A DNA stretch of 45,156 bases from a bacterium (GTDB lineage Bacteria; UBA8248). The notes below the pieces were generated by a model that ran no database searches, had not been told where the DNA came from, and saw only the letters and a program-made list of their open reading frames with translations. Position numbers and translations under genes: made by a program. The DNA lies in assembly GCA_965213685.1 (NCBI GenBank), contig CBDBZY010000026.1, positions 1-45,156 on the forward strand, given 5' to 3'. This document shows, piece by piece, positions 5,661-35,642 of this stretch (the stretch's first letter is position 1; each line of letters opens with the position of its first letter).

Positions 5661-6641
5661 TCAGCTCCCGACGCTTCGCGTCCGCCGGACGCGCCCGATG
5701 CGCCCTCCTCGCATGAGGCCCGCCCGAACGAACAGGTAGGCCAGCGCGCCGAACCACGCCCCCGAGGCTGTGCCGCCGAACAGCGCGTTCAGCATATCCG
5801 CGACGAGGCTTCCTGCCCAGAAGGAGACGGCGAGGATCATCCCCTCCGAGACGAGGCGCCCCAGGCGCCTGGCGAATTGTCTTTGCCTGGCCTGAAATGC
5901 GTCGCGCTCCGCCTTGACGCCGACGATCATGGGCGCCAGGCCGCGCCGCCATCCGTGGGACGCCACCATGAGCAGATGCCCGAGCGTGAAAAGGATGAGG
6001 AACAGCATGACGAGGAAGTGCAGGAACCTGCTCGACTGATACCCCCCGAACAGCCAGGTCAGCCACCCGAGCTGCACGGGCTTCAGGATGGCGAGCCCGG
6101 TGAGGACGGAGAGGACGCCGGCCAGTATGACGGCGTTGTACGCGAACTTCTGAATCGGGTGGAACTTTCCGTCCCCGGGCGGATGGTGAAAGGTTCGTAT
6201 GGGGTGAAGGAGCATCTGTTTCGCACCGGAGAAATCCTCCCGCGCGATGCGGTAGTGGCGCCCTTCCTCCGTGAGGAGAAGGGAGAGCAAGAAAACCAGG
6301 CCGTTGATGGTGTAGGGCCACATGAGGGCGAAGTGCCAGCGGAGGGCGCCCGCGAGCCATCCCCCGAGCCCGAACGTGTTCGCGAGGGACTGGACGAAAC
6401 TTCTGTAGTCAGCCCCGAGTTCGATGCCGCGCGCGTCGGCCTGGGCCTGCGTGCCCCGCACCGCCGCGAAGATGGTTTCCGGGTTGGGCCGGTCCGGCCC
6501 GAAGGCGGGATACGCCCACCATATCTGAAGCCCGCTCGCCATCATCAACAGCAGCAACGGGACGTTCAGCCAGTGGGTGATCCGCAACAGGGGGGAGTAG
6601 GCGTAGGCCGGTGCGCGCGGCGTTTTTTCCGTCTCCATCAT
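5661..6641 (-). CDS. b-type cytochrome membrane subunit (Ni/Fe-hydrogenase / thiosulfate reductase cyt b family) with extra C-terminal TM segments
   Basis: LRITHWLN, LRWHFALMW, KFHPIQKFAY, RFLHFLVM..GHLLMV heme-His motifs; ATG 6641 overlaps the upstream TGA. Confidence 0.85.
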   Translation of the reverse strand: MMETEKTPRAPAYAYSPLLRITHWLNVPLLLLMMASGLQIWWAYPAFGPDRPNPETIFAAVRGTQAQADARGIELGADYRSFVQSLANTFGLGGWLAGALRWHFALMWPYTINGLVFLLSLLLTEEGRHYRIAREDFSGAKQMLLHPIRTFHHPPGDGKFHPIQKFAYNAVILAGVLSVLTGLAILKPVQLGWLTWLFGGYQSSRFLHFLVMLFLILFTLGHLLMVASHGWRRGLAPMIVGVKAERDAFQARQRQFARRLGRLVSEGMILAVSFWAGSLVADMLNALFGGTASGAWFGALAYLFVRAGLMRGGRIGRVRRTRSVGS

Positions 6642-7177
6642 CGTTCGGCGAGCAGCTGCAGGATCATCGCTTCGGTGCGCGCGTGGTTGCCCTCGCCAAT
6701 CGTCTGGAATCGCACGATTCCCCTCTTGTCGATCAGGTATTTCGTCGGCCAGTAGCGGTTGCGGTAGGCGTTCCAGTTGGCGAACCGGTTGTCCATCACG
6801 ACGGGGTAGGGGATGCGGAGCCTGGCGATGGCGGCCTCTACGTTCTCTTTGCTCTTCTCGAAGCCGAACTCGGGCGCGTGGTTTCCGATGATGACCAGGC
6901 CCCGGTGCCTGTAGCGCTCGTGCCACGAACGCAGCGTGGGGAGCTCCCGCACGCAGTTGATTCAGCCGAACGTCCACATGTCGAGGAGCACGACCTTGCC
7001 GCGCAATTCCGCGAGCTGCAGCGGTGTATTGTTGTTGTCGCCGCCGCCCAGCCAGGGCCCGCCCCGCAGCTCGGGTGCGCGCGTTCCGGGTGCGAGCCCC
7101 GACGCGCGCGCCTGAGGGAGCGTCCAGAACATGGCGAGGAGCGCCGCGGCGCCGGCATAGGCCCAAGCGCGCTTCAT
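6638..7177 (-). CDS. secreted thioredoxin-fold (TlpA/DipZ C-terminal-like) selenoprotein, UxxC
   Basis: Track ORFs 6962-7243 and 6638-6952 are the same frame, joined across TGA 6962-6964: LRGKVVLLDMWTFG-U-INCVRELP...NHAPEF...YWPTKYLIDKRG. Signal peptide from ATG 7177, RBS AGGAG. Confidence 0.88.
6934..6954 (-). promoter_or_regulatory. putative bacterial SECIS hairpin
   Basis: GCGUG-C-GGG[AGCU]CCC-CACGC at +8..+28 after the UGA; loop G at +18. Confidence 0.6.
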
Positions 7178-7340
7178 CGTGGTCTCCTGTTGCGGGAAAG
7201 CCGCCTGCGCGGATACTTTAGGGAAATGATTGAACGGATGCAAATACTTCTATACGATGATCGGGCGGATTTTCCGACCTGTGGCGCTTCGCGGGTTTTG
7301 CCCAGTTGCGGGCAAGGAGACGGAAGAGGGGTATCCGGGG

Positions 7341-7697
7341 ATGAAACACTACCATTTCGAGGAGATGGAGCCGCACGACACCGGGGAGCGCGTCCAGCGG
7401 GTGGTGGCCGGCGAGCGCTTGACGGTGCTTCGCCAGACGATTCGCGCGGGCGTGGACATGTACAACCCCCATTCGCATCCGAACGAGCAGATGACGATCG
7501 TCCTTCAGGGAGAGGCGCGGTTCGAGTGCGGGGGCGAGGAGGTGGTGCTCGGGCCGGGCGGCGTGGTGGTGTTTCCGCCGCATCAGGAGCATTCCACCCG
7601 AAACGCGGGCGACGGAGAGCTCGTTCTGGAGGAGATATTCACGCCGGGCGTCGAGGCGCTGAACCGACTCGCGCGCGAGGGCGGGGCGGGCCGATGA
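7341..7697 (+). CDS. cupin-domain protein
   Basis: PHSHPNEQ...VFPPHQEHS cupin motifs. Confidence 0.85.
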   Translation: MKHYHFEEMEPHDTGERVQRVVAGERLTVLRQTIRAGVDMYNPHSHPNEQMTIVLQGEARFECGGEEVVLGPGGVVVFPPHQEHSTRNAGDGELVLEEIFTPGVEALNRLAREGGAGR

Positions 7698-7745
7698 GCG
7701 CCGCGTGGATGGCCTCGCCGGACGTTCCGTGGAGTGGGGAGAAGC

Positions 7746-8543
7746 GTGGGTCGTCTGACGATTGCGGGACTCAGCAAAGATTTTGAGGATGTGCGGGCAG
7801 TGGATAATCTCTCCCTCACGCTGGAGGAGGGGGAATTCATGGTGCTCGTCGGTCCCACCGGTTGCGGGAAATCGACCCTCCTGCGCCTGATCGCCGGCGT
7901 GGAGGATGCGGATGGCGGGCACATCTACCTGGACGGGGCGCGCGTCAACGACCTCCCCCCCGGCCAGCGCGGGGTTCAGCTCGTCTTCCAGAGCTACGCC
8001 CTCTGGCCGCACATGAAGGTGTTTGACGAGAGGGGATACTCCAACCTGGGCTTCGCGCTGAAAATTCGGCGGTGGCTCCCGGGCATCCTCAACGAGCGCG
8101 TCCAGGACGTGATGCGGCGCGTGGGAATCGCCAAGAGCTGGTCGGGCCGACACCCGCACCGGCTGAGTTCGGGTCAGCAGCAAAAAGTGGCGATTGGCCG
8201 GGCGATCGCCATCCCCCCGCGCGTTTTTCTGCTCGACGAGCCCTTGGCGAACATCGATCCGGTCGCCAGGCTCGAGGTGCGAAAGGAGTTGCGGAGGGTG
8301 CACGACGACATCGGGGCGATGAGCCTGCTGGTGACGCACGACCTGAACGATGCGTTCCAGATCGCGGATCGAATCGCCGTGATGCGCGACGGGGCAATCG
8401 TTCAGGTGGATACGCCGGAGTCCCTCATCCACCATCCGGCGAACGCCTTCGTCGAGGGATTTCTCTCGAGCGTGCACCACGAAAGGCTGCTGCGGGAGTT
8501 TCGGGCGAGGCGTCGGGTGCGAAAATCCGAAGCCGGCTCCTGA
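7746..8543 (+). CDS. ABC transporter ATP-binding protein (MalK/PotA-like)
   Basis: GPTGCGKS, VFQSYALWPH, LSSGQQQ, LLDEP, VTHD. Start could be GTG 7734 or 7746. Confidence 0.9.
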   Translation: MGRLTIAGLSKDFEDVRAVDNLSLTLEEGEFMVLVGPTGCGKSTLLRLIAGVEDADGGHIYLDGARVNDLPPGQRGVQLVFQSYALWPHMKVFDERGYSNLGFALKIRRWLPGILNERVQDVMRRVGIAKSWSGRHPHRLSSGQQQKVAIGRAIAIPPRVFLLDEPLANIDPVARLEVRKELRRVHDDIGAMSLLVTHDLNDAFQIADRIAVMRDGAIVQVDTPESLIHHPANAFVEGFLSSVHHERLLREFRARRRVRKSEAGS

Positions 8544-8544
8544 T

Positions 8545-9378
8545 TCACCCCGCCCCGGGGTTTTGCAGGAAGTCCCGCCATGCGTCCCAGTAGGTGGCGC
8601 CCCCGGCGAGGTATGTGTCGTTGTGGCCCGCCCCCCGGATGGTGAAAAAGCGTTTGTGGGGGGCGCGCGCCGCCTCGTAGAGTCGTTTTCCCTGGGCGTG
8701 GGGGACGATTCCGTCCCTGTCTCCATGCAGGATGAGCAAGGGCATCTCCACCTCGGGAATCATGGATGCGTTGTCGAATTTCTGGGAGATGAACCAGCCG
8801 ACCGGCAAAAAGGGAAACAGTTTTTTCCCCATGGCGATGATGTTCTCGAACGGGCTCTCCAGGATGAGGCCCCGCGCGCGCTTCCCCTCCACCGCGAGCC
8901 GGACGACCACGGCCGCGCCGATGGACCGGCCGAACAGAAAAACGCGCTCGTGCGGCATGCGCCCCGTGAGCCAGGCGTATGCGGCCCTCCCGTCGGCGTA
9001 GAGGCCCTCTTCGCTTGGCCTGCCCTCGCTTTTTCCATACCCCCGGTAGTCGAACAGGAATACCCCGGCGCCCAGTTCTTTTTGGATGAACGCAATGTTC
9101 TCCGCACGGTGCGAAAGGTTGCCGGCGTTGCCGTGTGCCCAGAGGAGAACCGGGCCGTTCGCCTCTTGGGGCGCGACGTACCAGCCGTGAATGCGCGCGC
9201 CGTCCTCGGTCTCGAGGTGGACGTTTTCGTAATCGACGCCATAGGTCCTGGGCGTCAGGTCGAGCTGCCGGTGGGGGTGGTAGAGGAGGAAGTTCTCGAG
9301 GAGGCCGATCATCCCTATCGCCAGCAATCCGCCAAGGGCGAGGAGTGCGTAGCGATGGAATTTCTGGGATAGGCGCAA
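8545..9378 (-). CDS. alpha/beta hydrolase (ABHD13/Bem46-like) with N-terminal TM anchor
   Basis: HGNAGN, DYRGYGKSEG, GRSIG nucleophile elbow, HGDRD, GAGHND. Confidence 0.9.
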   Translation of the reverse strand: MRLSQKFHRYALLALGGLLAIGMIGLLENFLLYHPHRQLDLTPRTYGVDYENVHLETEDGARIHGWYVAPQEANGPVLLWAHGNAGNLSHRAENIAFIQKELGAGVFLFDYRGYGKSEGRPSEEGLYADGRAAYAWLTGRMPHERVFLFGRSIGAAVVVRLAVEGKRARGLILESPFENIIAMGKKLFPFLPVGWFISQKFDNASMIPEVEMPLLILHGDRDGIVPHAQGKRLYEAARAPHKRFFTIRGAGHNDTYLAGGATYWDAWRDFLQNPGAG

Positions 9379-9388
9379 TGGTCCGTTC

Positions 9389-9805
9389 TCATTGAGGCGT
9401 TTCCGCCAGGCTCCGGTGCGCGACCTTGATGCAAAGGTTCTGGATGGCGGTGATTCCCGCATCCTCCAGGCGGCGGGCGGACGCCGGGTGGGAGATGCCC
9501 GCCTGCATCCAGAATGCGCCTGGCCGTTTTTTCAGCGCGTCGTCCACCAGAGGGGGGATTTGCGCGGGACGCCGGAACACGTTGACGATGTCGACGGGCG
9601 CCTCCACATCCCCCAGACGCGGATACGCCCTTTCGCCCAGGGAGCGTTCAATGCGGGGGTTGACGGGAATAATGCGATAGCCCGCTTCCTTCAGGTAGGC
9701 GGCGATGCGGTGGCTCGTCCGCGCGGAATCATCCGAGAGGCCGACCACGGCGATTGTCTTGGCCGCAGAAAGTATGGCGGCGATTTTCTGGTTCTCGATG
9801 CGCAT
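9389..9805 (-). CDS. CoA-binding protein (YccU-like)
   Basis: IAVVGLS, YRIIPVNP, VDIVNVFR, WMQAG, NLCIKV. Confidence 0.9.
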   Translation of the reverse strand: MRIENQKIAAILSAAKTIAVVGLSDDSARTSHRIAAYLKEAGYRIIPVNPRIERSLGERAYPRLGDVEAPVDIVNVFRRPAQIPPLVDDALKKRPGAFWMQAGISHPASARRLEDAGITAIQNLCIKVAHRSLAETPQ

Positions 9806-9996
9806 TCCCGCACCCTTCTCCTCTCTTCTTCCCATCCTTCCCACCCGGGGCGATCATAGCATAGACTGGAGAGAATGTGGCAGCCCGACGGCGCCCGGAA
9901 GCCGTTGCCCTGGATGGCGCCAGCCCGTAAGTCCAGGGGGGATGCGCGAGAGTCTTCCGGCGCGCACGAGAAAATATGCTTTCGGGAGGGGAGGGG

Positions 9997-10683
9997 ATGA
10001 TGCATATGCCGGTTGTGGAAATTTTCCATGAGTATCATTGACCGTGGGCATACCTGGCCGCGGCGCGGCTGGACAAGGTGATGCCCGGTTTTGAGGGAAA
10101 GCTGTTGCTGCGATGGCGCGCGTTTCCCCTGGAAGTCATCAACGACCGCCCGGCGCCGCGCCATATCGTGGATCAGGAGTGGCCGCTGGTGGCGGTCCAG
10201 GAGCCGCTCGCCCCGTGCAGAGGCTGGCCCCACGACGCGTATTTGCGGAGCACGATGCCCGCTTTTCAGGCCTACGCGAGTGCCTACGCGCAGGACCCGG
10301 AAAGGGCGCGCGCCTATGACTTGAGGCTGAGGCGCGGTTTTTTCTATGAGGGCAGGCGGGTGGACGAGGTTCTCGTTCTCGTCGAGATCGCGGCGGAGGC
10401 GGGCCTGGACCCTGCCCGTGTGCGCGCGGACCTCGAGTCGGGCAAATACGAGAAAGCCGTGATGGATGACTACAGGGAGGCCATGCGGCTGCGCGATGCG
10501 GAGGGATTGCCGATGACCAGCCCCACCCTGATCCTTCCGGGCGGGGAGGTCCTGCACAATCCCTATGCGTCCGAGAAGACGATAGAAGACGGGAGGCTGA
10601 CCGAGGTGCACGCACCGCCCGCTTACGGGGAGGCGGTGTATGCGGGGTTTCGGGAAATCCTGTCGAGAGCGGCGTCCGGGTGA
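9997..10683 (+). CDS. DsbA/FrnE-like thioredoxin-fold selenoprotein, UPWA motif
   Basis: RBS GGGAGGGG, then MMHMPVVEIFHEYH-U(TGA 10039-10041)-PWAYLAAARL, in frame with track ORF 10078-10683 (WRAFPLE, AAEAGLD, cis-Pro loop TSPTL). Confidence 0.82.
10054..10072 (+). promoter_or_regulatory. putative bacterial SECIS hairpin
   Basis: CUGGCCGC[GGC]GCGGCUGG, 8-bp stem with 2 G-U pairs; loop G at +21 from the UGA. Confidence 0.6.
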
Positions 10684-11291
10684 TTATGGCTGAGCACCAG
10701 CTTCGGATTTTATCTCTTGCTGGGCTTCTTTTTCCATTTTCTTTTTTCTCTCGGCCATTTGCTTTTTCAATCTCTCGTATTCCTCTTGGAGAGCGACGGA
10801 AGCAGAATCTTCAGGTTGCATGATAACATGGACGAGATTCGGGTATTCTTGTGCCGCGCCACTTACGGCGTCGACAAAAATTCCAACGCCTCCGCCGAGT
10901 ATGATGTTGCCCAAAAGTCGCGCCTACCAACGTCTCGTCAAATGCGTGTGTAGTTGTCTTGAAGCCTTTTTTTCTCACACGTGAGAACTATCGGCCCGTC
11001 TCCTTTATGGACTGTCGTGGCACTTGGAGTAGAGGCCCATGTATAGCTTCTCCCTCTTTTGTCGATTCCCTTGCACATCGCACCCTTCGCGTTGAGCACA
11101 TCCACGGTAATGGTTTGAGAGGTGCCCGAAACCAAAGTTGCGCAACCGGAGACGAGCAACGCCGAACAGGCGAGCAAAGGAGTTCCCATCATGCGCAGCA
11201 TGGCGGCCTTCCCTTTGCGCGCCATCGACCATGCTTCTCTCGTCCCGATCACTGCGGACAACGTGGCAACGACGATTGCGAACTTCTTCAT
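10684..11291 (-). CDS. putative lipoprotein with glycine-rich motif (two apparent +1 indels)
   Basis: Lipobox LVSGC, then ATLVSGTSQTITV ... GNIILGGGVGIFVDAVSGAAQEYP. Frame restored by dropping a base at 10967-10973 and at 10910-10916. Visibly more AT-rich than its neighbours. Confidence 0.65.
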
Positions 11292-11320
11292 GCGACAGCC
11301 CTCCCCTTGATGAAGGAATC

Positions 11321-11343
11321 CCCGGCCTTCCCGCAAGGCCGGG
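11321..11343. other. intergenic hairpin (possible terminator or stabiliser)
   Basis: CCCGGCCTT-CCCGC-AAGGCCGGG, perfect 9-bp stem, no clear U-tract. Confidence 0.4.
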
Positions 11344-11396
11344 TCGGTTGCCAAACGAACCCCGGAGGATAGGCGTCTCCGCCCGCCTTGGCCCGC

Positions 11397-11798
11397 TCAG
11401 GCGAGCGGGTACATCCGCGCGACGCGCAGCCTGGCGACGAGCCGTCTTTCGTCCTGCATCGCCTGCAGGTATTCCTCCACGTCGTCCGGCGCTTTTCCGG
11501 TGATGCGCCGATAGAGGTCGAGGTTCAGGAGTCCCTCCGGGTCTTTGACCAGCGCCGCCTCCCCCTCCGCGCAAAGGTAGGGATAGAAGCTGTCCTGCGG
11601 CAGCACGCAGAGCGTGGCCCTGGGGTCGCGCCTCAGGTTCTTGGCCTTCACGCGATCCCACGTCATGGAGAATTCCACCACCCCGCCGCGGTGATCGAAT
11701 ACGATGGGCGTGGGGTGCGGCCTGCCGTCCGCGAGCAGGGTGCTCAGGACGCCGTGGTGCTGCTCGTTCAGAAAAGCGGTCGCCTCATCGTGCGTCAT
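11397..11798 (-). CDS. PPOX-class (pyridoxamine 5'-phosphate oxidase-like, possibly F420-dependent) split-barrel protein
   Basis: GVLSTLLADGRPHPTPI, KAKNLRRDPRATLCV; RBS AAGGAG. Confidence 0.85.
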   Translation of the reverse strand: MTHDEATAFLNEQHHGVLSTLLADGRPHPTPIVFDHRGGVVEFSMTWDRVKAKNLRRDPRATLCVLPQDSFYPYLCAEGEAALVKDPEGLLNLDLYRRITGKAPDDVEEYLQAMQDERRLVARLRVARMYPLA

Positions 11799-12611
11799 GG
11801 GTTTCTCCTTGTGCATGCGCGTCGCTTACGGTGTCGATGAAAGCCTCGAACGCGGCGGAAAAAGCCTCGGGCGCCTCCTGCATCGGGTAATGGCCGCAGG
11901 CGGGAATCATCGTTCTGACGCAATCCGGAATCCGCGCCTCCAGCATCTCGCCGAACGCCATCGCCCCCGCGTCCCTCTCGCCCACGCACACCCAGGTGGG
12001 GGTGCGGATTTCGTGCAGCCGCGTCCTCATGTCGGGCGTCCGGAGGATGGCGTCTATCGCCGCGGCACAGCCGGCGGGCGTGTTCCGGAGGTATCGTTTC
12101 CGGAACGCCTCGGCGCCCTCTCCCTCCGTGTAGGCTTTGGGGAGCGTCGCCCCGCATCGCCTCGCTCGCCAGCATCGCCGCCACCCCCTCCTCCAGTGCG
12201 ATCTTGCGCAAAACGTTCCCATCGCTTTCGGGCCTCTCCTTCGGGGGCTGCGGCGGACGCGCCGACGAGGGTCAGGCTCTCCAGTTTTTCCGGGCGCTGC
12301 AGGGCGAACCACAGGGCGGTGCGCCCGCCCATGCTGTGTCCCATGAGGTGGACCCGGTCGAGCCCCCAGAAGTTCAGGAGGCCCAGCAGATCGTCGGCCA
12401 GGGCCGGGATGTCGTATGGCGCCTGCGGCGTCCCCGATGCGCCGTGGCCGCGATGATCGTATGCGAACACCTGGCAGCGTCTCGAGAGAGCGTCCATCAC
12501 CGGCTCCCACGTGTATGTGGAGTGCGCGAACCCGTGCATGGCGACCAGGGGCGTCCCCCGGCCCTTCACGACATACGCCAGGTTCACGCCGTTCACCGTC
12601 GCTATGGGCAT
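11785..12611 (-). CDS. alpha/beta fold hydrolase (PcaD/MenH-like; two apparent +1 indels)
   Basis: [31 protein letters not shown]. Frames join by removing a base at 12210-12213 and at 12150-12153. Confidence 0.82.
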
Positions 12612-12732
12612 CCTCCGCTCCTCCTTCCTCATGGGAAATATGCCGATCACCTTTGCCGCACCGCCAGAATACCCTATTATGGACTCTCGGGGAGAGCGAC
12701 CAGGTCCGACGAGCAGAGGCGGGAGAGTGCCC

Positions 12733-25358: not shown

Positions 25359-25991
25359 TCAGCTCTCCTCTTTCTCCTGCTCGAGGCGTTCTCGCCTGAC
25401 GCGGGCAACCTCCGCCCTGACGTCGTCGATCACGTCTTTGCCCCAGAAGCGCTTTCCCTCCACCACGAACGTGGGGATTCCAAAGATGCCCAGGCTCTTT
25501 CCCTGGGCGCGCTGGCTGTGGAGCGCGCCGATGTAGCGCTCCTCGGCAATGACGTTCTTGATTTCTTCTCCGTCCAGGCCGACGTCCTCGCCGAGCCGGG
25601 AGATGACGTCCGCATCCTCCAGATCCAGGTCTTCCACCCAGCGGGCCTGGTAGCAGCGATCCCGAAATTCCCGGAACTTTCCCTTGTCCCGGGCGTAATA
25701 GGTGGCCATATGAAGGCCGGTCGTGCGGTAGTCCGCTCCCGCCGGACGGATGGGGACGTTGTATTTCTCGGCGAGGGGCTTGTGGTTTGCCTCGTAGTTT
25801 TCTTTTTTCTGCTCGGGCGTGTAGCCGGCGAAGTCCTGGCCGGGCGGCCTCCCCTCCCAGCTCACCCATTCGACGACCACGTCAGGGTCCTCTTCAATCA
25901 CGGGCGTGCCACCGACGGTGGCGACATAGCAGAAAGGTCATGTGTAATCCGAGTATTTCACCACAACGATTGGTTCTTTCAACCCGCCCAT
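25359..25991 (-). CDS. DsbA/FrnE-like selenoprotein, UPFC motif
   Basis: MGGLKEPIVVVKYSDYT-U(TGA 25938-25940)-PFCYVA, in frame with track ORF 25359-25901 (GIFGIPTFVV..RFWG). Confidence 0.88.
25906..25925 (-). promoter_or_regulatory. putative bacterial SECIS hairpin
   Basis: GU-C-GCCACC[GUC]GGUGGC-AC; loop G at +22 from the UGA. Confidence 0.65.
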
Positions 25992-26058
25992 TGCGTTGCC
26001 TCCGTCTTGTTTTTGAGGAGAGAGGTCCGTGGCTGCGTCGCGCGCCGCACCGCTCGAT

Positions 26059-27495
26059 TTATACCACTTCCGCGCGGTCGTGGTCGATGGCGTCATGCCC
26101 CCCGGGGTCGACCCAGACGCCCATGTTCCGAAGTTCCGTCACCGCCCGCGAGATTTCTCGCGCGTCTCCGCGAAACGCGCATACCTGCCACCCCGAGTGG
26201 GCGTCGACCTCGCTTCTCAGGATGTGGATGGAGAAGGAATGCCGCTTGCCGAGCTCCCACAAGATGGGTTTGCCTACAAGATGTCCCGGAAGGGAGAGAA
26301 CCAGCCGGTCGCATCCCCGCGGTATCGGAGTCGCGTGGATGCCGACGGGTCCGCCGCTCTCCAGTCTGGCGAAAAAATCACCGACGATCTCGGTGAGCTT
26401 GTCGTACTGCACCAGGAACGCATCGTGCCCATAGGTGGACTCCACGGTGTGCAGCTCCGCCTCGCGCCCGAGTTTTTCGAGAATCCGGGCGATCTCCATG
26501 CTCCTCTCCGGCGGGAAGAGCCAATCGGATATGAAGCAGACGAGCATGCATTTGGTCGTCAGCCGCGATAGCGAGGCTTCGAGACTCTCGAAGCCTGCGG
26601 CGGCGTCGTAGAGGGCCATCATGCGGGATATGTACAGGTAGGAGTTCGCGTCAAAGCGCTCGACGAATTTGTCTCCCTGGTGGTCGAGGTAGCTCTCCAC
26701 CTCGAACCGGGAAGCGATGCCCTCCAGCATTTTGTCCTTGTCCCGAATCTCGCGGCCAAATTTCTCCCACATGACGCCCCGGCTCAGGTAGGTGATGTGG
26801 GCCAACATGCGCGCCGCGCTGAGGCCCTTGCGCGGCCCCCCGGACGAAGCGTAGTCGCCGTTTTCCCAGTCGCCGTCCGCCGTGATGGCCCGGCGGGCGA
26901 TTTTGTCCCAGGCGATTCCCATCGGGTCGAGGCGGGCGGCGCCCGCGACCGGTATCACGGAGTCGCAGAAATCGCTGTAGCGCAGCCCCCATTCCAGGCT
27001 TTGCATCCCGGCGAGGGAGCCGCCTATCACCGTTTTCAGGCGTTTGACGCCCAGGTGATCGAGGAGCAGCCTTTGGACGCGCACCGTGTCCCCCACCGTG
27101 ATGACGGGAAAGCCCATGTTGTAGGCGCTTCCGGTGGCGGGGTTGATGGAAGAGGGCCCCGTGGTGCCCGAGCATCCCCCCAGATTGTTGGAGGAGACGA
27201 CAAAGTATTTCTCCGTGTCGATGGCCTTGCCCGGGCCGATCATCGGGTCCCACCAGCCTGGCCGCGGATCGTCCCCGCTGTGGAAGCCGGCCGCGTGGGC
27301 GTCTCCCGTCAAGGCGTGAATGACCAAGACGGCGTTGTCCCCGCCGGGGGAGAGTTCGCCGTATGTCTCATAGCGCACCTGGACTTCGGGCAGCGTTTCG
27401 CCCGAATCGGTCCGGAACGGATCGGGGAGCGTGAACGTATGGGCTTGGACGAGGCCGACCGAGCCGGGGTCTTTCGTGAAATCTTTCTCGCTCAT
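26059..27495 (-). CDS. metX: homoserine O-acyltransferase MetX with C-terminal NIL-like domain
   Basis: HALTGDAH, NNLGGCSGTTGP, GGSLAG, RFDANSY, SDWLFP, GHDAFL; extra ~85 aa tail LSLPGHLVGKPILWEL...HILRSEV...GW...GVWVD. Confidence 0.92.
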   Translation of the reverse strand: MSEKDFTKDPGSVGLVQAHTFTLPDPFRTDSGETLPEVQVRYETYGELSPGGDNAVLVIHALTGDAHAAGFHSGDDPRPGWWDPMIGPGKAIDTEKYFVVSSNNLGGCSGTTGPSSINPATGSAYNMGFPVITVGDTVRVQRLLLDHLGVKRLKTVIGGSLAGMQSLEWGLRYSDFCDSVIPVAGAARLDPMGIAWDKIARRAITADGDWENGDYASSGGPRKGLSAARMLAHITYLSRGVMWEKFGREIRDKDKMLEGIASRFEVESYLDHQGDKFVERFDANSYLYISRMMALYDAAAGFESLEASLSRLTTKCMLVCFISDWLFPPERSMEIARILEKLGREAELHTVESTYGHDAFLVQYDKLTEIVGDFFARLESGGPVGIHATPIPRGCDRLVLSLPGHLVGKPILWELGKRHSFSIHILRSEVDAHSGWQVCAFRGDAREISRAVTELRNMGVWVDPGGHDAIDHDRAEVV

Positions 27496-28496: not shown

Positions 28497-28538
28497 GGGC
28501 GCGACGGAGTGGTGCGGAGCGAGGCCCACGGATTGTGA

Positions 28539-30782
28539 ATGAGAGATGAAGCCGCGGTTCCGGAGTTGCGCGTCGTCGCTGGAATCATCTGGCGCGAGGG
28601 GCGCATCCTCGTTTGCCAGCGACCGGAGGGCGGGCATATGCCCGGTCTCTGGGAGTTTCCCGGCGGCAAAGTGGAGCGCGGCGAAAACGCCCGGGCGGCG
28701 CTGCGTCGGGAGATTGGCGAGGAGCTCGGCATCGAGGCGCGCGTCGGCCGCCTGCGCTGGGAGACGCGCCACCGCTATCCCGACAGGAGCGTTCACCTGC
28801 GCTTCTATGATTGCGCGTGGAAAAGCGGGGCGGCGCGGAATCTGGGGGTGGCCAGGCACGAGTGGGTGCGCCCCTCCGCGTTGGGGGATTTTGATTTCCT
28901 GCCCGCCGACGCGCGGCTGATAGATTCTCTCATGCGCCCCCGGAAAACGCGCGATTCCGGCAAAAACCCCCGAACCCGAAACGCTTCGGGAGATTTGCGC
29001 GTCGCCTATGATGCGTGTCTGGGAATCGCGGCCGGCCACTATGAGAATTTCCCCGTCGCCTCGCGGCTGCTGCCGGCGCGGGTGCGCCCGCATGTGGCCG
29101 CGGTCTACGCCTTCGCAAGAGGCGCGGACGACGTCGCCGACGGGGCCGGGCGCGCGGACGAGCGCCTCGCGCGTCTGGAGGAATGGGAAGAGAGGCTCCT
29201 GGCGGCGCGGAGGGGAATCGCGGAGTCGGACGTTTTCCGGGCGCTTTCGGACACGATGCGTCGTTTCGACTTGCCCCTGCGGCCTTTTCAGGATTTGCTC
29301 TCGGCGTTTCGGCAAGACGTCACGGTGACCCGATACCCGGACTACGAAGCCTTGCGCGACTATTGCCGCCGTTCCGCGAACCCGGTCGGGCGCGTGGTTC
29401 TCATGCTGCACGGCATACGCGACGCGGAGGCCCTGCGCGCGTCGGACGCCATATGCACGGCCTTGCAGATCGCGAATCACCTGCAGGACGTCAGGGGGGA
29501 CGCCGAGCGCGGCGTCGTCTATATGCCGCAGGACGAGATGGAGAGATTCGCCGTCTCCGAGGGAGATTTGACGCGGGATGCGGCGACGCCTCCGCTGCGC
29601 GCGTTTCTCGTTTTCCAGATACGAAGAACGAAGCGTCTTTTCCGGGAGGGGCTGCCGCTGTTGTACCGGACACGCGGCGCGCTCGGCCGCGAGCTTCGGG
29701 CGATCTGGCGCGGCGGCATCGCGGCACTCGACGCGATCTCCCGCGCCGGGTGGAACGTTTGCGCAGGCTCGCCCACCCTGAACCGCCGGGACAGGGCCGC
29801 GTTGTTTCTCGCGGCGCTTCGCCCGGTCTATCGGCTGGAGTCCCTGGTGGACCGGCGCGCGGAAGAAGAGTTGCGCCGCCGATATTGCCGCTGGCTCATC
29901 CGCGCGAGCCGCTCGAATTTTTCCCTCCCCTTTCTCGCCCTGCCGGCGGACAGGAGGCGCGCCCTCATGGCGGTGTATGCCTATTGCCGCATAGCGGACG
30001 ACATCGCCGACGCCCCGGGCGAGGAGACGGACCGCAAAAGAGCATCGCTGCGCTTCGAACGAACGTGTGGAGGAAGGGCGGATGAGCGGCGCGAGGAGAC
30101 GGACCGCAAAAAAATATCGCTGCGCGCGTGGCGGGAGGCGCTGGCGGGTTTGCGCGAGGCGGATCCACCCCACCCGATAATCGGGGAACTCGCGTGGGCG
30201 GCGCGAAAATATGATTTGCCGCCGGAACACCTTCAGGCGGTTTGCGACGGCGTGGCGATGGATTTGGAGGAGGAGGGGAGCCGCTTCGAGGGTCTTGCCG
30301 AGCTGGAAAATTATTGCGACAAGGTGGCCTCGGCGGTGGGGCTGGCGTGTTTGGGCATCTTTGGGGCGAAGTCGGAATCCGCGAAACATTACGCCACCTG
30401 TCTGGGCAGAGCGCTTCAGATGACGAATATCCTGCGCGACGTCTGGGAGGATGCGGCGCGCGGGCGGTGCTACATTCCGCAAGACGAGATGGAAAAATAC
30501 GGGGTGACGGCCTCCGATCTGGCGAGCGGGAGGCATACCCCCGAGGTGGTGCGTCTTCTGCGGCTTCAGGCGCGGCGGGCGCGCGGGTATTACGAGCGGG
30601 CGGATGCTGCGTTGCGCGAGGGGGAGAGGGGAGCCCTCTTCCCTGCGAGACTCATGGCCCGCATCTACCAGAGGCTTTTGCGGAAGATGGAAGCCGATCA
30701 TTTCCGGCACACGGACTATCGCCCCTCTGTCCCCTCCCGGGAAAAACTGCACGAAGCGCTCCGCTGCTTTCTGGAGCCATAG
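28539..30782 (+). CDS. Nudix (MutT-like)-HpnC-HpnD fusion protein
   Basis: One 747-aa ORF: Nudix box WEFPGGKVERGENARAALRREIGEELG; HpnC HYENFPVAS, ADDVAD, RSANPVGR, NHLQDV; HpnD SNF, YAYCRIADDIAD, VASAVG, TNILRDVWED. Confidence 0.85.
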   Translation: MRDEAAVPELRVVAGIIWREGRILVCQRPEGGHMPGLWEFPGGKVERGENARAALRREIGEELGIEARVGRLRWETRHRYPDRSVHLRFYDCAWKSGAARNLGVARHEWVRPSALGDFDFLPADARLIDSLMRPRKTRDSGKNPRTRNASGDLRVAYDACLGIAAGHYENFPVASRLLPARVRPHVAAVYAFARGADDVADGAGRADERLARLEEWEERLLAARRGIAESDVFRALSDTMRRFDLPLRPFQDLLSAFRQDVTVTRYPDYEALRDYCRRSANPVGRVVLMLHGIRDAEALRASDAICTALQIANHLQDVRGDAERGVVYMPQDEMERFAVSEGDLTRDAATPPLRAFLVFQIRRTKRLFREGLPLLYRTRGALGRELRAIWRGGIAALDAISRAGWNVCAGSPTLNRRDRAALFLAALRPVYRLESLVDRRAEEELRRRYCRWLIRASRSNFSLPFLALPADRRRALMAVYAYCRIADDIADAPGEETDRKRASLRFERTCGGRADERREETDRKKISLRAWREALAGLREADPPHPIIGELAWAARKYDLPPEHLQAVCDGVAMDLEEEGSRFEGLAELENYCDKVASAVGLACLGIFGAKSESAKHYATCLGRALQMTNILRDVWEDAARGRCYIPQDEMEKYGVTASDLASGRHTPEVVRLLRLQARRARGYYERADAALREGERGALFPARLMARIYQRLLRKMEADHFRHTDYRPSVPSREKLHEALRCFLEP
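30019..30125 (+). repeat. in-frame 35-nt direct repeat, 72-nt period, inside the HpnD domain
   Basis: 30019-30053 vs 30091-30125, 3 mismatches; EETDRKRASLR / EETDRKKISLR. Confidence 0.85.
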
Positions 30783-30785
30783 GCG

Positions 30786-32135
30786 ATGGCCCCGCCCGCG
30801 CGATGCGAGCAGCCGATCGTCGTCATCGGCGCCGGCGCCTCGGGACTGTCCGCCGCTTTGCGCCTTGCGGAGTCGGGCCTCAGGGTGGTGGTGCTCGAGG
30901 CGGGCGCCCTCCTCGGCGGCCGGGCGCGTTGCTTCGCCCACCGGGGCGCGGAGCTGGACTGGGGTCCGCACTTGTTGATGGCGGCGAATCCCTCGTTCCG
31001 CTCTTTGCTGGAGAGGACGGGAGCCGCCGCCGACGTTTTTTTCTATCCCTCGCTGGGGGTGAGCTACCGCGTTCGGGAAGCGGGACTCGTCCGGCGGACG
31101 CGATTGTCGCTTCCCGGGAGCGGGGGTGCCCCGGCGCAGGTTTGGGGCTTGCTGAAATGGCGGGGCCCGCGCTTCGGGGAGAAATGGCGCATTCTGCGCG
31201 GCCTTTCCAAAATCGTTTCCGGGTCAGCGGACGAGAGGCCGGACGAGTCGGTGCGCGAAATGCTCCGACGCTTTGGGCACGGGGAGGAGGCCGCGCACTG
31301 GTTTTGGGAGCCGTTCGCGCGCGCGGTGTTGAACCTGCCCCTGGAGCGGGCGAGTGCGAAGTTGTTCCGGACGGTCGTTCGCGAGGCCTTCGCCCATGGC
31401 CCCGGGGGGGCCGCCCTGGGCGTTCCGACGACGACCCTCGGCTCGGTATGGTCGGAGCGATGCGCGCGAAGGATCGAGCAACTGGGCGGGGAGGTGAGGT
31501 TGAAGTCGCCCGTGCTCGGCCTGGATGTCGGGCGTGCGGGAATGAGGGGCGTGATTCTCGACGGGCGGGAGGCTCTTCCCGCGCGCGCGGTCATATCCGC
31601 CGTGCCGCCCGACGCGCTTGGCAGGTTGGCGGAGGGGGAATTCGCGGAGCGAACGCTTTTCCCGAACCTGGGGAAACTCCGCCCGGGCCCCATCGCCAGC
31701 GCCTACTGCTGGCTGAAGAAACCGGATGCGGGGCCGCGCGTGGAGGCCATCCTGAACGAGGATTGGCATTGGCTGTTTCGTCCCGGGGCGGGCGGAGCGG
31801 ACGCTGAAAACCTGGTGTGCCTGCTGGCCGGAGCCGATGACTCCATCGCGGCCGGGAGTCGGCGCGCCATGAAGTCATCCGCGGCGGAATGTCTGAACCG
31901 CCTCATTCCCGGCAATGCCGTCCGGGATGTTCTGGTGGTGCGGGAGCGCGCGGCCACCTGGGCGAACGGGGTGGCGGAGCAGGATGGCCGGATGGACACG
32001 CGAACGCCCATCGCGGGTTTCTTTCTGGCTGGCGACTGGACTCGGACGGGCCTGCCGGCCACCGTGGAGGGGGCGGTGCGAAGCGGGGACAAGGCGGCGG
32101 AGGCGGTTTTGGAGGGCGTGCGCGCAGGCGGGTAA
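30786..32135 (+). CDS. hpnE: hydroxysqualene dehydroxylase HpnE
   Basis: IGAGASG, LGGRA, DWGPHLLM, ERAAT, AGDWTRTGLPATVEGAVRSG; directly after hpnCD. Confidence 0.87.
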   Translation: MAPPARCEQPIVVIGAGASGLSAALRLAESGLRVVVLEAGALLGGRARCFAHRGAELDWGPHLLMAANPSFRSLLERTGAAADVFFYPSLGVSYRVREAGLVRRTRLSLPGSGGAPAQVWGLLKWRGPRFGEKWRILRGLSKIVSGSADERPDESVREMLRRFGHGEEAAHWFWEPFARAVLNLPLERASAKLFRTVVREAFAHGPGGAALGVPTTTLGSVWSERCARRIEQLGGEVRLKSPVLGLDVGRAGMRGVILDGREALPARAVISAVPPDALGRLAEGEFAERTLFPNLGKLRPGPIASAYCWLKKPDAGPRVEAILNEDWHWLFRPGAGGADAENLVCLLAGADDSIAAGSRRAMKSSAAECLNRLIPGNAVRDVLVVRERAATWANGVAEQDGRMDTRTPIAGFFLAGDWTRTGLPATVEGAVRSGDKAAEAVLEGVRAGG

Positions 32136-34217: not shown

Positions 34218-34318
34218 CGGGTTGTTCCTGTCGATGATAAATTGTGAATTCTGGAGAATCAGCATACCATAACCGGGGGGATGAAAAACGGGGAATCCAC
34301 AGGAAAAAGGACGCCGTT

Positions 34319-35161
34319 TTGCCTTTGAGCGACTCTCAGCTGGAAGCCGTTTGCGATCTGCTGGATGATGGTTCGCCGAGCGTGGCCGCGGTTTTGAACC
34401 GCCAGGTTTCAGGGTTCTCGGACGAGGAGCGGACGAAACTCTTCTTGATGTTGCAAAAGCGCGAGTCCCAGGGGGTGCTGCTGCCGCCATCGCTCAGGCG
34501 CTTCCATTACGCGCGGATCGAAGACGCTTTCTTGGACTGGTCTCTCTCCTCGGGGAAGGATGCGGATCTGGAGGATGCGTGCTTTATCCTGGCGTCCTTC
34601 GGCCACCCGCTGGAGGACATGAAGACGAGAAAGGACGAATTGCGGAACATGGAGGCGCATTTGCGCCAGCGTCTGGGGGGTCTCGCCGAAACGGACGCGG
34701 TTCTCGCCGAGGTGGTCGCGTATCTGCACGGAGACCTCCGGTTTGACGGGGATCGGGAAAATTACTATGACGCGCAAAACAGCTTTCTGAATCGCGTGCT
34801 GGATCGCAGGCGGGGCATTCCCATATCCCTCTCCGCCCTGTATCTGATTCTCGCCAGGCGGCTGCGGCTTCCGTTTCATGGCGTGGGGATGCCGGGACAT
34901 TTCATCGTCAGGTACCAGTCCGTGGAAGGCCCCATATTTCTGGACCCCTATGATCGGGGCAAACGCCTGAGCGTGGGGGATTGCGCGGAAATCGTCCGGG
35001 GGCTAGGCTATCATTTTGACATGCGGTTTTTGCAGGAAACCCCGCCTCGGCGCATCGTGGAGCGGATGCTCAACAATCTGATCGGCGTTTACAAGCGCGA
35101 CGGCGAGGATGAGAAGGCGACCTGTCTGCTCCGCTGTCGGGAACTGGCGCAGCGGGGATAA
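34319..35161 (+). CDS. SirB1 / transglutaminase-like domain protein
   Basis: YYDAQNSFLNRVLDRRRGIPISL, GVGMPGHF, LDPY, RMLNNL. Start codon uncertain. Confidence 0.85.
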   Translation: MPLSDSQLEAVCDLLDDGSPSVAAVLNRQVSGFSDEERTKLFLMLQKRESQGVLLPPSLRRFHYARIEDAFLDWSLSSGKDADLEDACFILASFGHPLEDMKTRKDELRNMEAHLRQRLGGLAETDAVLAEVVAYLHGDLRFDGDRENYYDAQNSFLNRVLDRRRGIPISLSALYLILARRLRLPFHGVGMPGHFIVRYQSVEGPIFLDPYDRGKRLSVGDCAEIVRGLGYHFDMRFLQETPPRRIVERMLNNLIGVYKRDGEDEKATCLLRCRELAQRG

Positions 35162-35186
35162 CCCCCTCACGCAAAAGGGATGCGGC

Positions 35187-35642
35187 ATGAACTATTTCGA
35201 GCTGGCGGAGAATCTGGCGTTCGGGGGTCAACCAAACCGCGAAGACATGGAGTCTCTCGCGCGGAGGGGAATAAAAACCCTGGTGAACTTGCGCCTGGCG
35301 GATGAAGGCGAGTCCGAGCTCCCGCCGGATGCGGAGGAAAAGGCGGCCCGGGAGCTGGGGATGGACTTCGTGCATATTCCCGTAAGCGTCAGCACCATGA
35401 ATGACGCCTTGTCCAAAGAAATCGGCGAGACGATTCGCGGGGCCAGAAAAGGCGGACCGGTGTTTGTCCACTGAAAGGGCATGGGGCGGGCCGGGATTTG
35501 CTCGCTGATGCATCTGGCGGAAGAGGAGGAGATGGGCACCGCCGAGGTGTTGCAGAAGGCGCGCGCACTGGGGCTGGACTGGCGGGCCTCCTCCATCGGG
35601 GGATATTTCCAGAAATTCGCGGACCAGAGAAAGAAGCCCTGA
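35187..35642 (+). CDS. DUF442 / PTP-fold (sulfurtransferase or phosphatase-like) putative selenoprotein, H-U-x5-R
   Basis: GGQP, GIKTLVNLR, GMDFVHIPV, GPVFVH-U(TGA 35472-35474)-KGMGRAG, then open to TGA 35640-35642 (151 aa). Confidence 0.85.
35484..35503 (+). promoter_or_regulatory. putative bacterial SECIS hairpin (weak)
   Basis: GGGCGGG[CCGGGA]UUUGCUC, 7 pairs of which 4 are G-U; loop Gs at +19..+21. Confidence 0.4.

Follow-up and report, generated by a model that had tools for sequence, protein, structure and literature searches.

Probable selenocysteine codons at the catalytic positions of four thioredoxin-, DsbA- and PTP-fold genes in a selenoprotein-rich bacterium

Four genes in a 45,156-nucleotide stretch of bacterial DNA (the whole of it here called the window) contain an in-frame TGA exactly where related proteins carry a nucleophilic Cys. 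Do these codons end the proteins, reflect errors in the assembly, or specify an amino acid, and if so which one? The TGAs, which had been put forward from inspection of the DNA letters as selenocysteine (Sec) codons, are all present at 6962–6964, 10039–10041, 25938–25940, and 35472–35474; the first and third lie on the minus strand and so read TCA on the plus strand. We conclude that all four are very probably Sec codons recoded by the standard bacterial pathway, a reading that rests on the codons themselves, their conservation as TGA, the occurrence of paired Sec and Cys forms, the Sec machinery, and conserved hairpins. The features are as follows.

5664..6614, minus strand: cytochrome b561-type membrane protein (Pfam Ni_hydr_CYTB, 3.9e-15)
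6638..7243, minus strand: gene 1, TlpA/ResA-like thiol-disulfide oxidoreductase, WTFG-U-INC (read-through translation; AhpC-TSA, Redoxin, and ResA matches across U94)
6962..6964, minus strand: probable Sec codon UGA of gene 1, replacing the first Cys of CxxC (translation, TGA conservation, run contigs)
6934..6954, minus strand: SECIS-like bulged hairpin of gene 1, GCGUG-C-GGG / AGCU loop / CCC-CACGC (MFE fold)
9997..10683, plus strand: gene 2, DsbA/FrnE-like protein, HEYH-U-PWAY (UxxA, lacking the resolving Cys; Pfam DSBA)
10039..10041, plus strand: probable Sec codon UGA of gene 2 (translation, conservation, run contigs)
10055..10071, plus strand: SECIS-like hairpin of gene 2, UGGCCGC / GGC loop / GCGGCUG (pairing in relatives)
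25359..26096, minus strand: gene 3, DsbA/FrnE-like protein, DYT-U-PFCY (UxxC; Pfam DSBA)
25938..25940, minus strand: probable Sec codon UGA of gene 3 (translation, conservation, run contigs)
25908..25922, minus strand: SECIS-like hairpin of gene 3, GCCACC / GUC loop / GGUGGC (pairing in relatives)
35187..35642, plus strand: gene 4, DUF442/TIGR01244-type PTP-fold protein of ~151 aa, P-loop VFVH-U-KGMG-R-AGICS (translation, Pfam, AF2 model)
35472..35474, plus strand: probable Sec codon UGA at the P-loop nucleophile of gene 4 (alignment with Cys of homologues)
35485..35506, plus strand: SECIS-like hairpin of gene 4, GGCGRGC / CGGGAUUU loop / GCUCGCU (conservation in relatives)

Catalytic motifs interrupted by TGA

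Read through the TGA, genes 1–4 give the peptides WTFG-U-INC, HEYH-U-PWAY, DYT-U-PFCY, and VFVH-U-KGMGRAG. The original prediction held that each fold continues on both sides of the TGA and that the codon occupies a redox or nucleophilic Cys position, and both points are borne out: a single Pfam domain spans every site, and each U falls at the nucleophilic Cys when aligned to homologues that have solved structures or contain Cys. Homologues have Cys rather than Trp at the four sites, the sole exception being a decayed copy of gene 4 (L152) with TGG and, in addition, a TAA stop. The same codon is TGA in 28 of 32 distinct loci from relatives for gene 1 (TGC in the other four, which are distant and read FWTYS-C-INC), in 34 of 34 for gene 2, in 32 of 34 for gene 3 (Ser in two distant paralogues of 28% identity), and in 28 of 29 for gene 4, and the loci that keep TGA include single-contig genomes. 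Orthologues with one internal TGA are found in all 22 same-genus genomes for genes 1–3 and in 20 of the 22 for gene 4.

The AhpC-TSA match of gene 1 covers residues 55–179 and spans U94 (46.2 bits), and a Redoxin match scores 32.2 bits, both above cut-offs; with a thioredoxin-fold domain and U at the first CxxC position (UINC), the protein falls among the TlpA/ResA-like redoxin UxxC selenoproteins. Its start is probably the ATG at 7177. The N-terminus that follows (MKRAWAYAGAAALLAMFWTLPQARA) appears by eye to be signal-peptide-like, and the product is probably exported. The cytochrome b561-type gene lies directly downstream and is a possible operon partner; their adjacency may point to a functional linkage.

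Genes 2 and 3 both match DSBA (PF01323), the former over residues 6–174 spanning U15 (52.1 bits) and the latter over residues 45–229 spanning U53 (94.1 bits). Gene 3 carries the motif UPFC, which makes it a UxxC member of PF01323, and its U lies opposite the leading Cys of both CPYC in 3gyk and CPWC in FrnE; its start is probably Met 25991, because orthologues match from residues 24–36 onward. Gene 2 has no resolving Cys three residues past U, the motif being UPWA in 32 of 32 orthologues and UPWC in only two paralogues (L116 and L117). Its Cys forms read YYCPWCY (P0227–P0229) and IGCPWAH (P0233), and for homologues at 66–71% identity the source records give the names ‘Nitrospinota bacterium’ or ‘Candidatus Tectomicrobia bacterium’.

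The reading frame of gene 4 is open from 35109, and its orthologues all begin at Met 35187. In the open frame, BLH_phosphatase (PF04273) matches residues 32–128 across U122 with 35.9 bits (cut-off 26.1), and the TIGR01244 score of 47.7 bits falls short of that model's cut-off (85.85). An AF2 model of the read-through protein is a single PTP domain (pLDDT 92, pTM 0.88) whose best PDB match is the DUF442 structure 3gxh (TM 0.76–0.79), and it places U96 between a strand (92–95) and a helix (100–113), the arrangement of a PTP-fold P-loop. In alignments with 3gxg, 2f46, and ShufPTP, the U takes the place of their Cys, with H-U-x4-R falling onto vhC...R in 3gxg, and an invariant Cys follows nine residues after U (H-U-x4-R-A-G-x-C-S). 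A homologue search at near lengths with E ≤ 1e-5 returned none, and the Cys homologues came from an exhaustive profile search; they include the full-length P0006 (VFVH-C-KAIGRAG, E 2e-55), P0011, and many proteins of ~150 aa. In other relatives (P0009 and P0012), the domain is fused to rhodanese and metallo-beta-lactamase domains.

These data bear on whether the TGAs are simply true stops in genes that are split or decaying, with downstream halves that are untranslated or separately translated. Gene callers treat them in this way, as had been expected of standard annotation: public gene calls end at or after the TGA, yielding 95-aa products that end in ...VFVH and N-truncated DsbA products of 199–211 aa, and one relative does hold a truly decayed gene 4 copy, the L152 locus mentioned above. 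We nonetheless regard termination as highly improbable, given that in every relative the downstream half remains an open frame with conserved protein sequence (35–85% identity), that in each of four unrelated genes the TGA falls precisely on the nucleophile of the catalytic motif, and that one continuous domain covers each site, with gene 4 giving a high-confidence single-domain model when read through.

The TGAs might themselves be sequencing or assembly errors in an error-prone long-read assembly, and the assembly does contain 1-nt homopolymer indels. Contigs of two runs of a single study, X1 and X2, from which the assembly itself may derive, carry TGA and not TGC or TGT at three of the sites (6962, 10039, and 25938), with 0 other letters over these codons; at gene 3 the coverage is by contigs of X1 (24169–26053) and X2 (16678–26100). 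Strain X4 has no change at 6962 or 10039 among the matches listed. The sole differences between the run contigs and the window are 1-nt indels, most of them in homopolymers, with six of the eight indel sites supported by run X1 falling in runs of at least four identical bases, which agrees with the earlier view that the other frame defects are homopolymer indels. Since the errors seen are indels and not substitutions, and the same TGAs recur in dozens of independently assembled genomes, substitution errors at four catalytic Cys codons are as implausible as originally argued, and this explanation has a negligible probability and is effectively refuted.

Hairpins 3′ of the UGA codons

Bacterial Sec insertion elements, by bSECISearch-type criteria, are stem-loops just 3′ of the UGA with an apical loop ~16–37 nt away and a G near the start of the loop. 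MFE folds place such a hairpin 3′ of each TGA in the window, with the loop G at +18, +21, +22, and +19..21, as had been described, so that genes 1–4 all have a stem-loop of this type, and SelB binding is predicted. In this 65% GC DNA, single-sequence fold energies did not differ significantly from those of shuffles (z = −1.67, −1.76, +0.65, and −0.92). The stems show almost no synonymous variation among relatives, and a hairpin of at least 5 bp without interruption occurs in 15 of 26 sequences related to gene 1, 32 of 33 for gene 2, 31 of 31 for gene 3, and 27 of 27 for gene 4.

The form of the hairpin differs from gene to gene. At gene 1, the genus form is bulged, and relatives keep a hairpin at the site whose stem sequences differ (e.g., CCGGG/AGAU/CCCGG); the 26 sequences split into three stem versions, and RNAalifold gave no consensus for all of them together. 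The gene 2 hairpin is paired in 93.9% of cells, against 29–58% when the partners are slid, and 28 sequences have G-C at pair 22–28 where 5 have U-A, a compensatory change that constitutes covariation at one pair in one clade; synonymous sites of codons +6..+10 are almost invariant. For gene 3, 94.6% of cells are paired, 34 of 500 shuffles performed equally well in the covariation comparison, and loop base 3 varies freely while the synonymous sites of the stem are frozen. The gene 4 hairpin is encoded by the P-loop codons themselves: 24 of 54 columns in the region are invariant among 27 sequences that share only 35–75% protein identity, and the sole variant in the stem is G/A opposite U.

A set-level comparison was made with a fixed definition (a perfect stem of at least 5 bp, a G at loop base 1 or 2, and a loop start at +16..+28). 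Such a hairpin is present in 28 of 41 Sec candidates from the genome; among the controls, 602 of 3589 Cys codons and 73 of 426 true TGA stops have one (Fisher 5e-13, a value that overstates the case because hairpins are inherited in common among paralogues). For the set of 41 genes, MFE was weakly lower than in controls (P = 0.035).

Sec machinery, genetic code, and host selenoproteome

The genes for Sec synthesis and insertion, a search for which the original prediction had proposed as a check, are all found in the same assembly on 65% GC contigs like the window. The tRNA-Sec scores 78.6 bits and is called by ARAGORN as SeC with anticodon tca; selA (564 bits) and selB (370 bits) are adjacent to each other on contig C5; and selD carries its own in-frame UGA (KAGG-U-GSK) together with at least three frameshifts, which lie at homopolymers and are tentatively attributed to errors of the assembly. 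In five of five single-contig relatives, selA and tRNA-Sec occur on the same chromosome as the orthologues of genes 1–4, and selB and selD are likewise present. An Rfam scan of the window itself returned nothing beyond two tRNAs.

A different possibility is that UGA is read as another residue, either as Cys through a tRNA-Sec-like tRNA and a SelB-like factor or through general reassignment of TGA to Trp or Gly. Cys-inserting tRNA-Sec-like systems exist in bacteria, and Cys is what homologues have at these sites, so that a Cys reading would give functional proteins. We consider this very improbable: the only tRNA with anticodon tca matches tRNA-Sec at the score given above, selA and a Sec-containing selD are present, and Trp occurs in no homologue other than the decayed copy. 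General reassignment is excluded because TGA ends 426 of 951 long coding ORFs of the genome and is its commonest true stop. Decoding of the four codons as Sec is the reading that we retain.

The host is a bacterium of ~3.1 Mb and 65% GC. A home-made scan of the bacterial portion of the assembly (3.07 Mb), which is blind to Sec codons close to N-termini and is not the BSepDB pipeline, gave 47 firm and 1 probable Sec genes, with one GATase candidate kept out of the count. Among the rejected candidates, ten of ten motif-less ones tested by Pfam were adjacent same-frame genes (e.g., L14/L24, LptF/LptG, and TctB/TctA), and six more (L172–L177) were false; the only other candidate in the window, the TGA at 41770, is a gene boundary.

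Proposed selenoprotein chemistry and comparison with known families

Actual selenium insertion into the products of genes 1–4, their chemistry, and their substrates are what we infer from these data. SelD would provide selenophosphate, SelA would convert Ser-tRNA(Sec), and SelB would bring it to the UGA and the mRNA hairpin. The products would be a probably exported TlpA/ResA-like UxxC protein, a pair of cytoplasmic DsbA/FrnE-like proteins (UxxC in gene 3 and single-selenol UxxA in gene 2), and the DUF442 PTP-fold protein. In all four, a selenolate would take the place of the attacking thiolate. The UxxC proteins of genes 1 and 3 could then form a selenenylsulfide with the resolving Cys, the UxxA protein of gene 2 a selenenylsulfide with an external thiol, and the gene 4 protein a covalent Se-S (or Se-P) intermediate.

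The genome had been called exceptionally selenoprotein-rich, and its ~48 genes in 3.07 Mb uphold that description. The novelty does not stand: three MAGs assigned to GTDB phylum UBA8248 (NCBI label Nitrospinota/Nitrospinae) appear in Table 2 of BSepDB (2026) with 54, 50, and 48 selenoprotein genes (PMC13326102), a number similar to that found here by a different counting pipeline, and the richness is less novel than first supposed because counts of 48–54 genes are on record for a lineage that is probably this one. The names of the gene 2 homologues suggest this lineage, and the kinship of the relatives, which passes straight from the same class to the same domain, would fit a small, isolated phylum. 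The present count of ~48 genes is an independent selenoproteome, checked by hand, of a lineage placed by this database among the richest bacteria. It also illustrates how badly routine annotation under-reports selenoproteins, as public collections hold only the short stubs or N-truncated products. We found no literature on selenoproteins of Tectomicrobia.

The TlpA-like and DsbA-like UxxC forms are already catalogued selenoprotein families. Gene 1 resembles the UxxC selenoproteins listed as thiol-disulfide isomerase-like (cd02966), Redoxin (PF08534), and Prx-like (PF00578) (PMC13188914, Table 1) in its thioredoxin fold, in Sec at the first Cys of CxxC, and in its AhpC-TSA, Redoxin, and ResA matches; it differs in lying below every NCBIfam cut-off (ResA, 58.6 vs 170 bits; the WAxxUGC selenoprotein model, 28.5 vs 300) and in its motif WTFGUINC, which parallels that of the FWTYSCINC Cys forms. 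Two forms of DsbA-like selenoproteins are tabulated, UxxC (form 1, PF01323) and DxxUP (PMC13188914). Genes 2 and 3 are like form 1, and like the Cys proteins FrnE (5cnw) and 7dk9, in their PF01323 match and in the alignment of U with the first Cys of CPWC. Gene 2 is unlike either form in having UPWA and no resolving Cys, for which the Cys counterparts are CPWA (P0233) and CPYA (7dk9).

The 119-family table, to which our comparison was confined, contains no PTP-fold/DUF442 family and no UPWA DsbA-like form (PMC13188914). A literature search linking DUF442, PF04273, or TIGR01244 to selenocysteine or selenoproteins found nothing, and the words phosphatase, sulfurtransferase, and UBA8248 are absent from the text of the deep-Sep paper. 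We put at roughly even chances that gene 4 and its paralogue form an uncatalogued PTP-fold Sec family (H-U-x4-R-A-G-x-C-S) and that the UPWA gene 2 is a second uncatalogued form; both are candidates for widening the selenoprotein catalogue. Beyond these candidates and the gene count, the mechanism is textbook bacterial Sec recoding.

Gene 4 shares with the DUF442/TIGR01244 ‘sulfur transferase’ proteins the same fold, a short C-x4-R P-loop, and a nucleophile after a beta strand; among the Cys forms are 3gxh, 2f46, and the N-terminal domain of Blh, a bifunctional sulfur transferase/dioxygenase. A sulfur transferase (or phosphatase) function may apply, going by the NCBIfam family names. If the reading is correct, gene 4 would be the first PTP-fold selenoenzyme, one in which sulfane sulfur or selenium is probably carried in the form of an Se-S or Se-Se intermediate, and a Sec-containing PTP-fold sulfurtransferase-like protein would be a natural test of selenium in P-loop nucleophile chemistry. 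It is set apart from the DUF442 Cys forms by having Sec as the nucleophile, and its functional analogue among known selenoproteins is the rhodanese-type Sec sulfurtransferases (UxxG).

Four in-frame TGA codons and their protein domains

The window is contig C26 of assembly G000 in its entirety. In-frame TGA codons lie in all four genes exactly where the original prediction had placed them, one per gene, and translation through them as selenocysteine (Sec, U) affords the following products:

Gene 1 (TlpA/ResA-like), TGA at 6964-6962, minus strand: ...LLDMWTFG-U-INCVRELP
Gene 2 (DsbA/FrnE-like), TGA at 10039-10041, plus strand: MMHMPVVEIFHEYH-U-PWAYLAAARLD
Gene 3 (DsbA/FrnE-like), TGA at 25940-25938, minus strand: ...VVKYSDYT-U-PFCYVATVGG
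Gene 4 (DUF442, PTP-fold), TGA at 35472-35474, plus strand: ...GGPVFVH-U-KGMGRAGICSL

The fold had been proposed to continue on both sides of each codon, and a single Pfam domain indeed spans all four. AhpC-TSA/Redoxin (residues 55-179) is unbroken across U94 of gene 1, DSBA across U15 of gene 2 (residues 6-174) and U53 of gene 3 (residues 45-229), and BLH_phosphatase/PTP-NADK (residues 32-129) across U122 of gene 4. NCBIfam searches returned ResA-like matches for gene 1 and TIGR01244/Blh 'sulfur transferase' matches for gene 4, with every score under the curated cut-off. A looser scan of the whole window yielded no further Sec candidate. The genes have the following neighbors, where the names metX and ilvD are our own reading of ORF translations:

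Directly after gene 1: cytochrome b561-type gene
Between genes 1 and 2: cupin, ABC ATPase, alpha/beta hydrolase and CoA-binding protein
Flanking gene 3: metX-like gene on one side, FAD amine-oxidase-like gene on the other
Flanking gene 4: transglutaminase-like gene before, ilvD after

The ~3 kb spacing of genes 1 and 2 is maintained in relatives. Just upstream of gene 2 (9898-9960), a related strain from sequencing run X4 carries 105 other letters in place of 61 bases, a replacement that reflects variation between strains in the 5' region. Elsewhere, positions 27750-32100 (plus strand) keep one coding frame over a long stretch, with a weak codon-usage score and no gene called by a simple caller.

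Contigs of other sequencing runs were compared with the window over 6600-26100, which takes in the TGA codons of genes 1-3. Those of run X1 have no differing letters over 6600-18813 and 24169-26053, and those of run X2 have neither differing letters nor gaps over 6821-10859 and 16678-26100; the TGA is thus supported at all three sites by two runs; these come from a single study, and the assembly itself may derive from them. The X4 strain differs at many sites, none of them at 6962-6964 or 10039-10041 among the first 40 listed (up to 11082; there are 240 more). Relative to the X1 contigs, the window has single-base indels at 10913, 10967, 12150, 12216, 13194, 13815, 14591, and 24435, six of the eight at runs of at least four identical bases, in agreement with the earlier attribution of frame defects to homopolymer indels. 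Those at 13194, 13815, and 14591 coincide with frame switches in the coding-frame map of 12.7-15 kb. At some of the eight sites the X2 contigs are the same as the window.

Conservation of the codons, cysteine counterparts and downstream hairpins

Each read-through protein was searched in 60 relatives and in its own genome, and the loci were then fetched and aligned; the protein downstream of the TGA is conserved for all four genes. For gene 1, the best match contains an internal TGA in 22/22 same-genus, 11/14 further family, and 6/7 class genomes. The aligned codon is TGA in 28 of 32 fetched loci and TGC in the four most distant (34-53% identity), which have FWTYS-C-INC and similar motifs. A one-TGA orthologue of gene 2 occurs in 36/36 family genomes, one of them split by a frame change, and all 34 fetched loci have the TGA, within UPWA in 32 and UPWC in two paralogues. 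Gene 3 is likewise present in 36/36 family genomes (contig ends cut two), with TGA in 32/34 fetched loci and Ser in two paralogues at 28% identity. Orthologues of gene 4 were found in 20/22 genus genomes, and 28 of 29 distinct fetched loci have the TGA; genus genome G019 has the paralogue alone. A second clade of gene 4 at 35-45% identity, which includes the own-genome paralogue at C31:176131, also carries TGA. In genome G009 the gene 4 orthologue (G009:C10:131282-131869) is a decayed copy: its P-loop has diverged, TGG stands in place of the Sec codon, and it contains a TAA stop; the G009 paralogue retains TGA.

The TGA codons had been assigned to catalytic Cys positions, and Cys occupies the aligned site in the TGC forms of gene 1 and in homologues of genes 2-4. 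Full-length gene 2 homologues have YYCPWCY (P0227-P0229, 37-43% identity) or IGCPWAH (P0233, 35%), and its PDB counterparts are CPYA in 7dk9 and CPWC in FrnE. The U of gene 3 aligns to the first Cys of CPYC in 3gyk (stretch E 9e-5) and to CPWC in FrnE, where the N-terminal stretch is weak by itself. The U of gene 4 aligns to the Cys of 3gxg, 2f46, and ShufPTP. A profile of 20 Sec forms of gene 4 retrieved 7975 proteins at E <= 1e-3, and among 26 matches examined the full-length ones (148-162 aa) have Cys, as in VFVH-C-KAIGRAGVCS of P0006 (E 2e-55).

Public gene calls for genes 2 and 4 include the stubs and N-truncated products expected if standard callers fragment such genes. Three proteins of 94-95 aa among the 26 gene 4 matches end exactly at ...VF[VI]H, and the P0007 cluster consists of five members, each 95 aa long; a word-indexed search gave no near-length homologue of gene 4. 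The 73 gene 2 homologues are mostly 199-211 aa and cover 87-91% of the query, and one (P0163) begins with MAAARLD, just past U.

Hairpins 3' of the TGA codons occur at the places originally described, although none is significant singly. As a class they exceed chance on three lines: set enrichment, synonymous sites, and pairing. The set test demanded a perfectly paired stem no shorter than 5 bp, a loop with G among its first two bases, and a loop start at +16 to +28 nt. Such hairpins follow 28/41 first-pass Sec genes versus 602/3589 Cys codons in coding ORFs and 73/426 true TGA stops; at 6 bp or more the counts are 22/41, 219/3589, and 30/426, respectively, and the P values overstate this enrichment because paralogues inherit common hairpins. 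Synonymous variation, measured as minor-allele fraction at third codon positions, is reduced in the stems:

Gene 2, stem codons +6 to +10: stems 0-0.09, flanks 0.3-0.7
Gene 3, stem codons +6, +7, +9, +10: stems 0-0.1, flanks about 0.3-0.5
Gene 4, stem codons +4, +6, +7, +9, +10: stems 0, flanks about 0.4-0.5

The loop codon +8 of gene 3 has a fraction of 0.33, and the sole variable site of the gene 4 stem is G/A opposite U. Pairing is kept in 93.9% of cells for gene 2, versus 29-58% with partners slid, and at pair 22-28 the G-C of 28 sequences is exchanged for U-A in five others, all from one clade. For gene 3 it is kept in 94.6% of cells, with a covariation score equalled by 34/500 shuffles. 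The stem of gene 1 is rebuilt from clade to clade (GUG-C-GGG/CCC-CAC versus CCGGG/CCCGG), and a single consensus structure across relatives was not found.

Sec machinery and the genome-wide selenoproteome

Assembly G000 is a mixture. Forty-nine contigs of at least 60% GC, the window among them, sum to 3.07 Mb, and 22 contigs of 33-54% GC (C2, C7, C16, C18, C41, C51, C64, and 15 others) sum to 4.9 Mb. The latter hold 199 tRNAs, ORFs of at least 150 aa make up just 34% of the sequence, and a search for EF-Tu in them found no match; they are non-bacterial in look, unrelated to the 65% GC bacterium, and possibly eukaryotic. Because of this, and because same-genus relatives measure 2.9-4.6 Mb (several as single contigs), the high-GC fraction is taken as the bacterium, and all genome-wide counts refer to it. 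A search for the Sec machinery located every component on contigs of 65-66% GC:

tRNA-Sec, C44:222261-222353: 78.6 bits versus a cut-off of 47; tRNA-SeC, anticodon tca, by ARAGORN
selA and selB, neighbors on C5: 564 and 370 bits
selD, C31:101342-102111: own TGA in KAGG-U-GSKLGPEDL

The SeC tRNA is the only one among 53 tRNAs. The selD gene changes frame at least three times, at C/G homopolymers (e.g., CCCCGGGGG and CCGGGGGGG), and assembly indels probably break its reading frame also. In five of five relatives assembled as single contigs, of which three share the genus, one the family, and one the class, both selA and tRNA-Sec score over cut-off. TGA is the commonest ordinary stop (426/951 long coding ORFs), so the genetic code is not reassigned.

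The genome was scanned by codon usage, with coding signal demanded on both sides of the TGA, and by paralogue searches and a looser scan; 40 read-through candidates were put through Pfam. A domain extends across U in 17/17 representatives of motif-bearing families, and the GRDB-like domain stops three residues short of it. All ten motif-less candidates proved to be adjacent genes in one frame. The 13 loose-scan candidates comprise six supported, six false, and one uncounted. The final list of 47 firm and one probable Sec genes, which bears out the claim of an exceptionally selenoprotein-rich genome, is a lower bound since the scan, which missed genes 2 and 3, overlooks Sec codons close to N-termini.

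Sec genes by family in the 3.07 Mb high-GC fraction
CMD/AhpD-like (CxxU): 13
UGSC: 6
OsmC-like: 5
DsbA-like: 4
GRDB-like (UxLCxRS): 3
Deiodinase-like: 2
Rhodanese: 2
AhpC/Prx-like: 2
DUF442: 2
Grx-like: 2
TlpA-like: 1
DUF3179: 1
MGMT: 1
Rdx/SelW-like: 1
ArsC: 1
SelD: 1
LysW-like zinc ribbon (CPGU): 1, probable

The CMD/AhpD-like CxxU expansion includes C31:45658, 120774, and 181418, C3:164806, C25:36811, and C38:38415, and many of the 13 copies have a common CUUGGUCAAG-type hairpin whose GGUC loop begins at +25. Two small candidates ~240 nt apart at C63:12342-12880 are glutaredoxin-like (ST-U-APC) and LysW-like, the latter with CPG-U in its first knuckle. Four Sec genes fall within 29 kb in two cases, C26 and C31:153042-181418, where ~0.13 such windows are expected (Poisson). 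This amounts to mild clustering of genes that are functionally unlinked.

The DUF442 protein and comparison with known selenoproteins

All 29 fetched gene 4 sequences, orthologues and paralogues, begin at the Met at 35187 or close to it, which gives a product of about 151 aa. An AF2 model from a 20-sequence alignment (pLDDT 92, pTM 0.88) places U96 between strand 92-95 (VFVH) and helix 100-113. Its best PDB matches are the DUF442 proteins 3gxh and 2f46, with TpbA, Tk-PTP, and SsoPTP next, and its U-x4-R loop resembles that of DUF442 structures, unlike the C-x5-R of classical PTPs. Residues R101, A102, G103, C105, S106, and L107 are invariant. Homologues P0009 and P0012 are fused to rhodanese and metallo-beta-lactamase domains, and the NCBIfam family is named sulfur transferase; these features favor a role in which gene 4 would transfer sulfane sulfur (or selenium) via an Se-S intermediate that C105 might resolve.

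Almost all Sec families of this genome are among the 119 in Table 1 of a 2026 review (PMC13188914), which has thiol-disulfide isomerase-like (cd02966), Redoxin, and Prx-like UxxC forms and DsbA-like forms 1 (UxxC) and 2 (DxxUP). That table has no UxxA DsbA form and no PTP-fold, DUF442, PF04273, or TIGR01244 entry, although the supplements or the BSepDB website might list a DUF442 form. The largest bacterial selenoproteomes given in the review belong to the Olavius Delta 1 symbiont, with 57 genes, and to a Methylomirabilota MAG, with 63; in the BSepDB top ten (Table 2 of PMC13326102) stand three MAGs of UBA8248, with 54, 50, and 48 genes. Homologues of gene 2 carry the source names 'Nitrospinota bacterium' and 'Candidatus Tectomicrobia bacterium', and the present genome is probably a member of the UBA8248 lineage. 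The original observation is confirmed and its Sec interpretation supported. Recoding here follows the usual bacterial Sec pathway, in a lineage recently documented as very rich in Sec genes, and a modest novelty lies in the DUF442-type and UPWA-type Sec forms.
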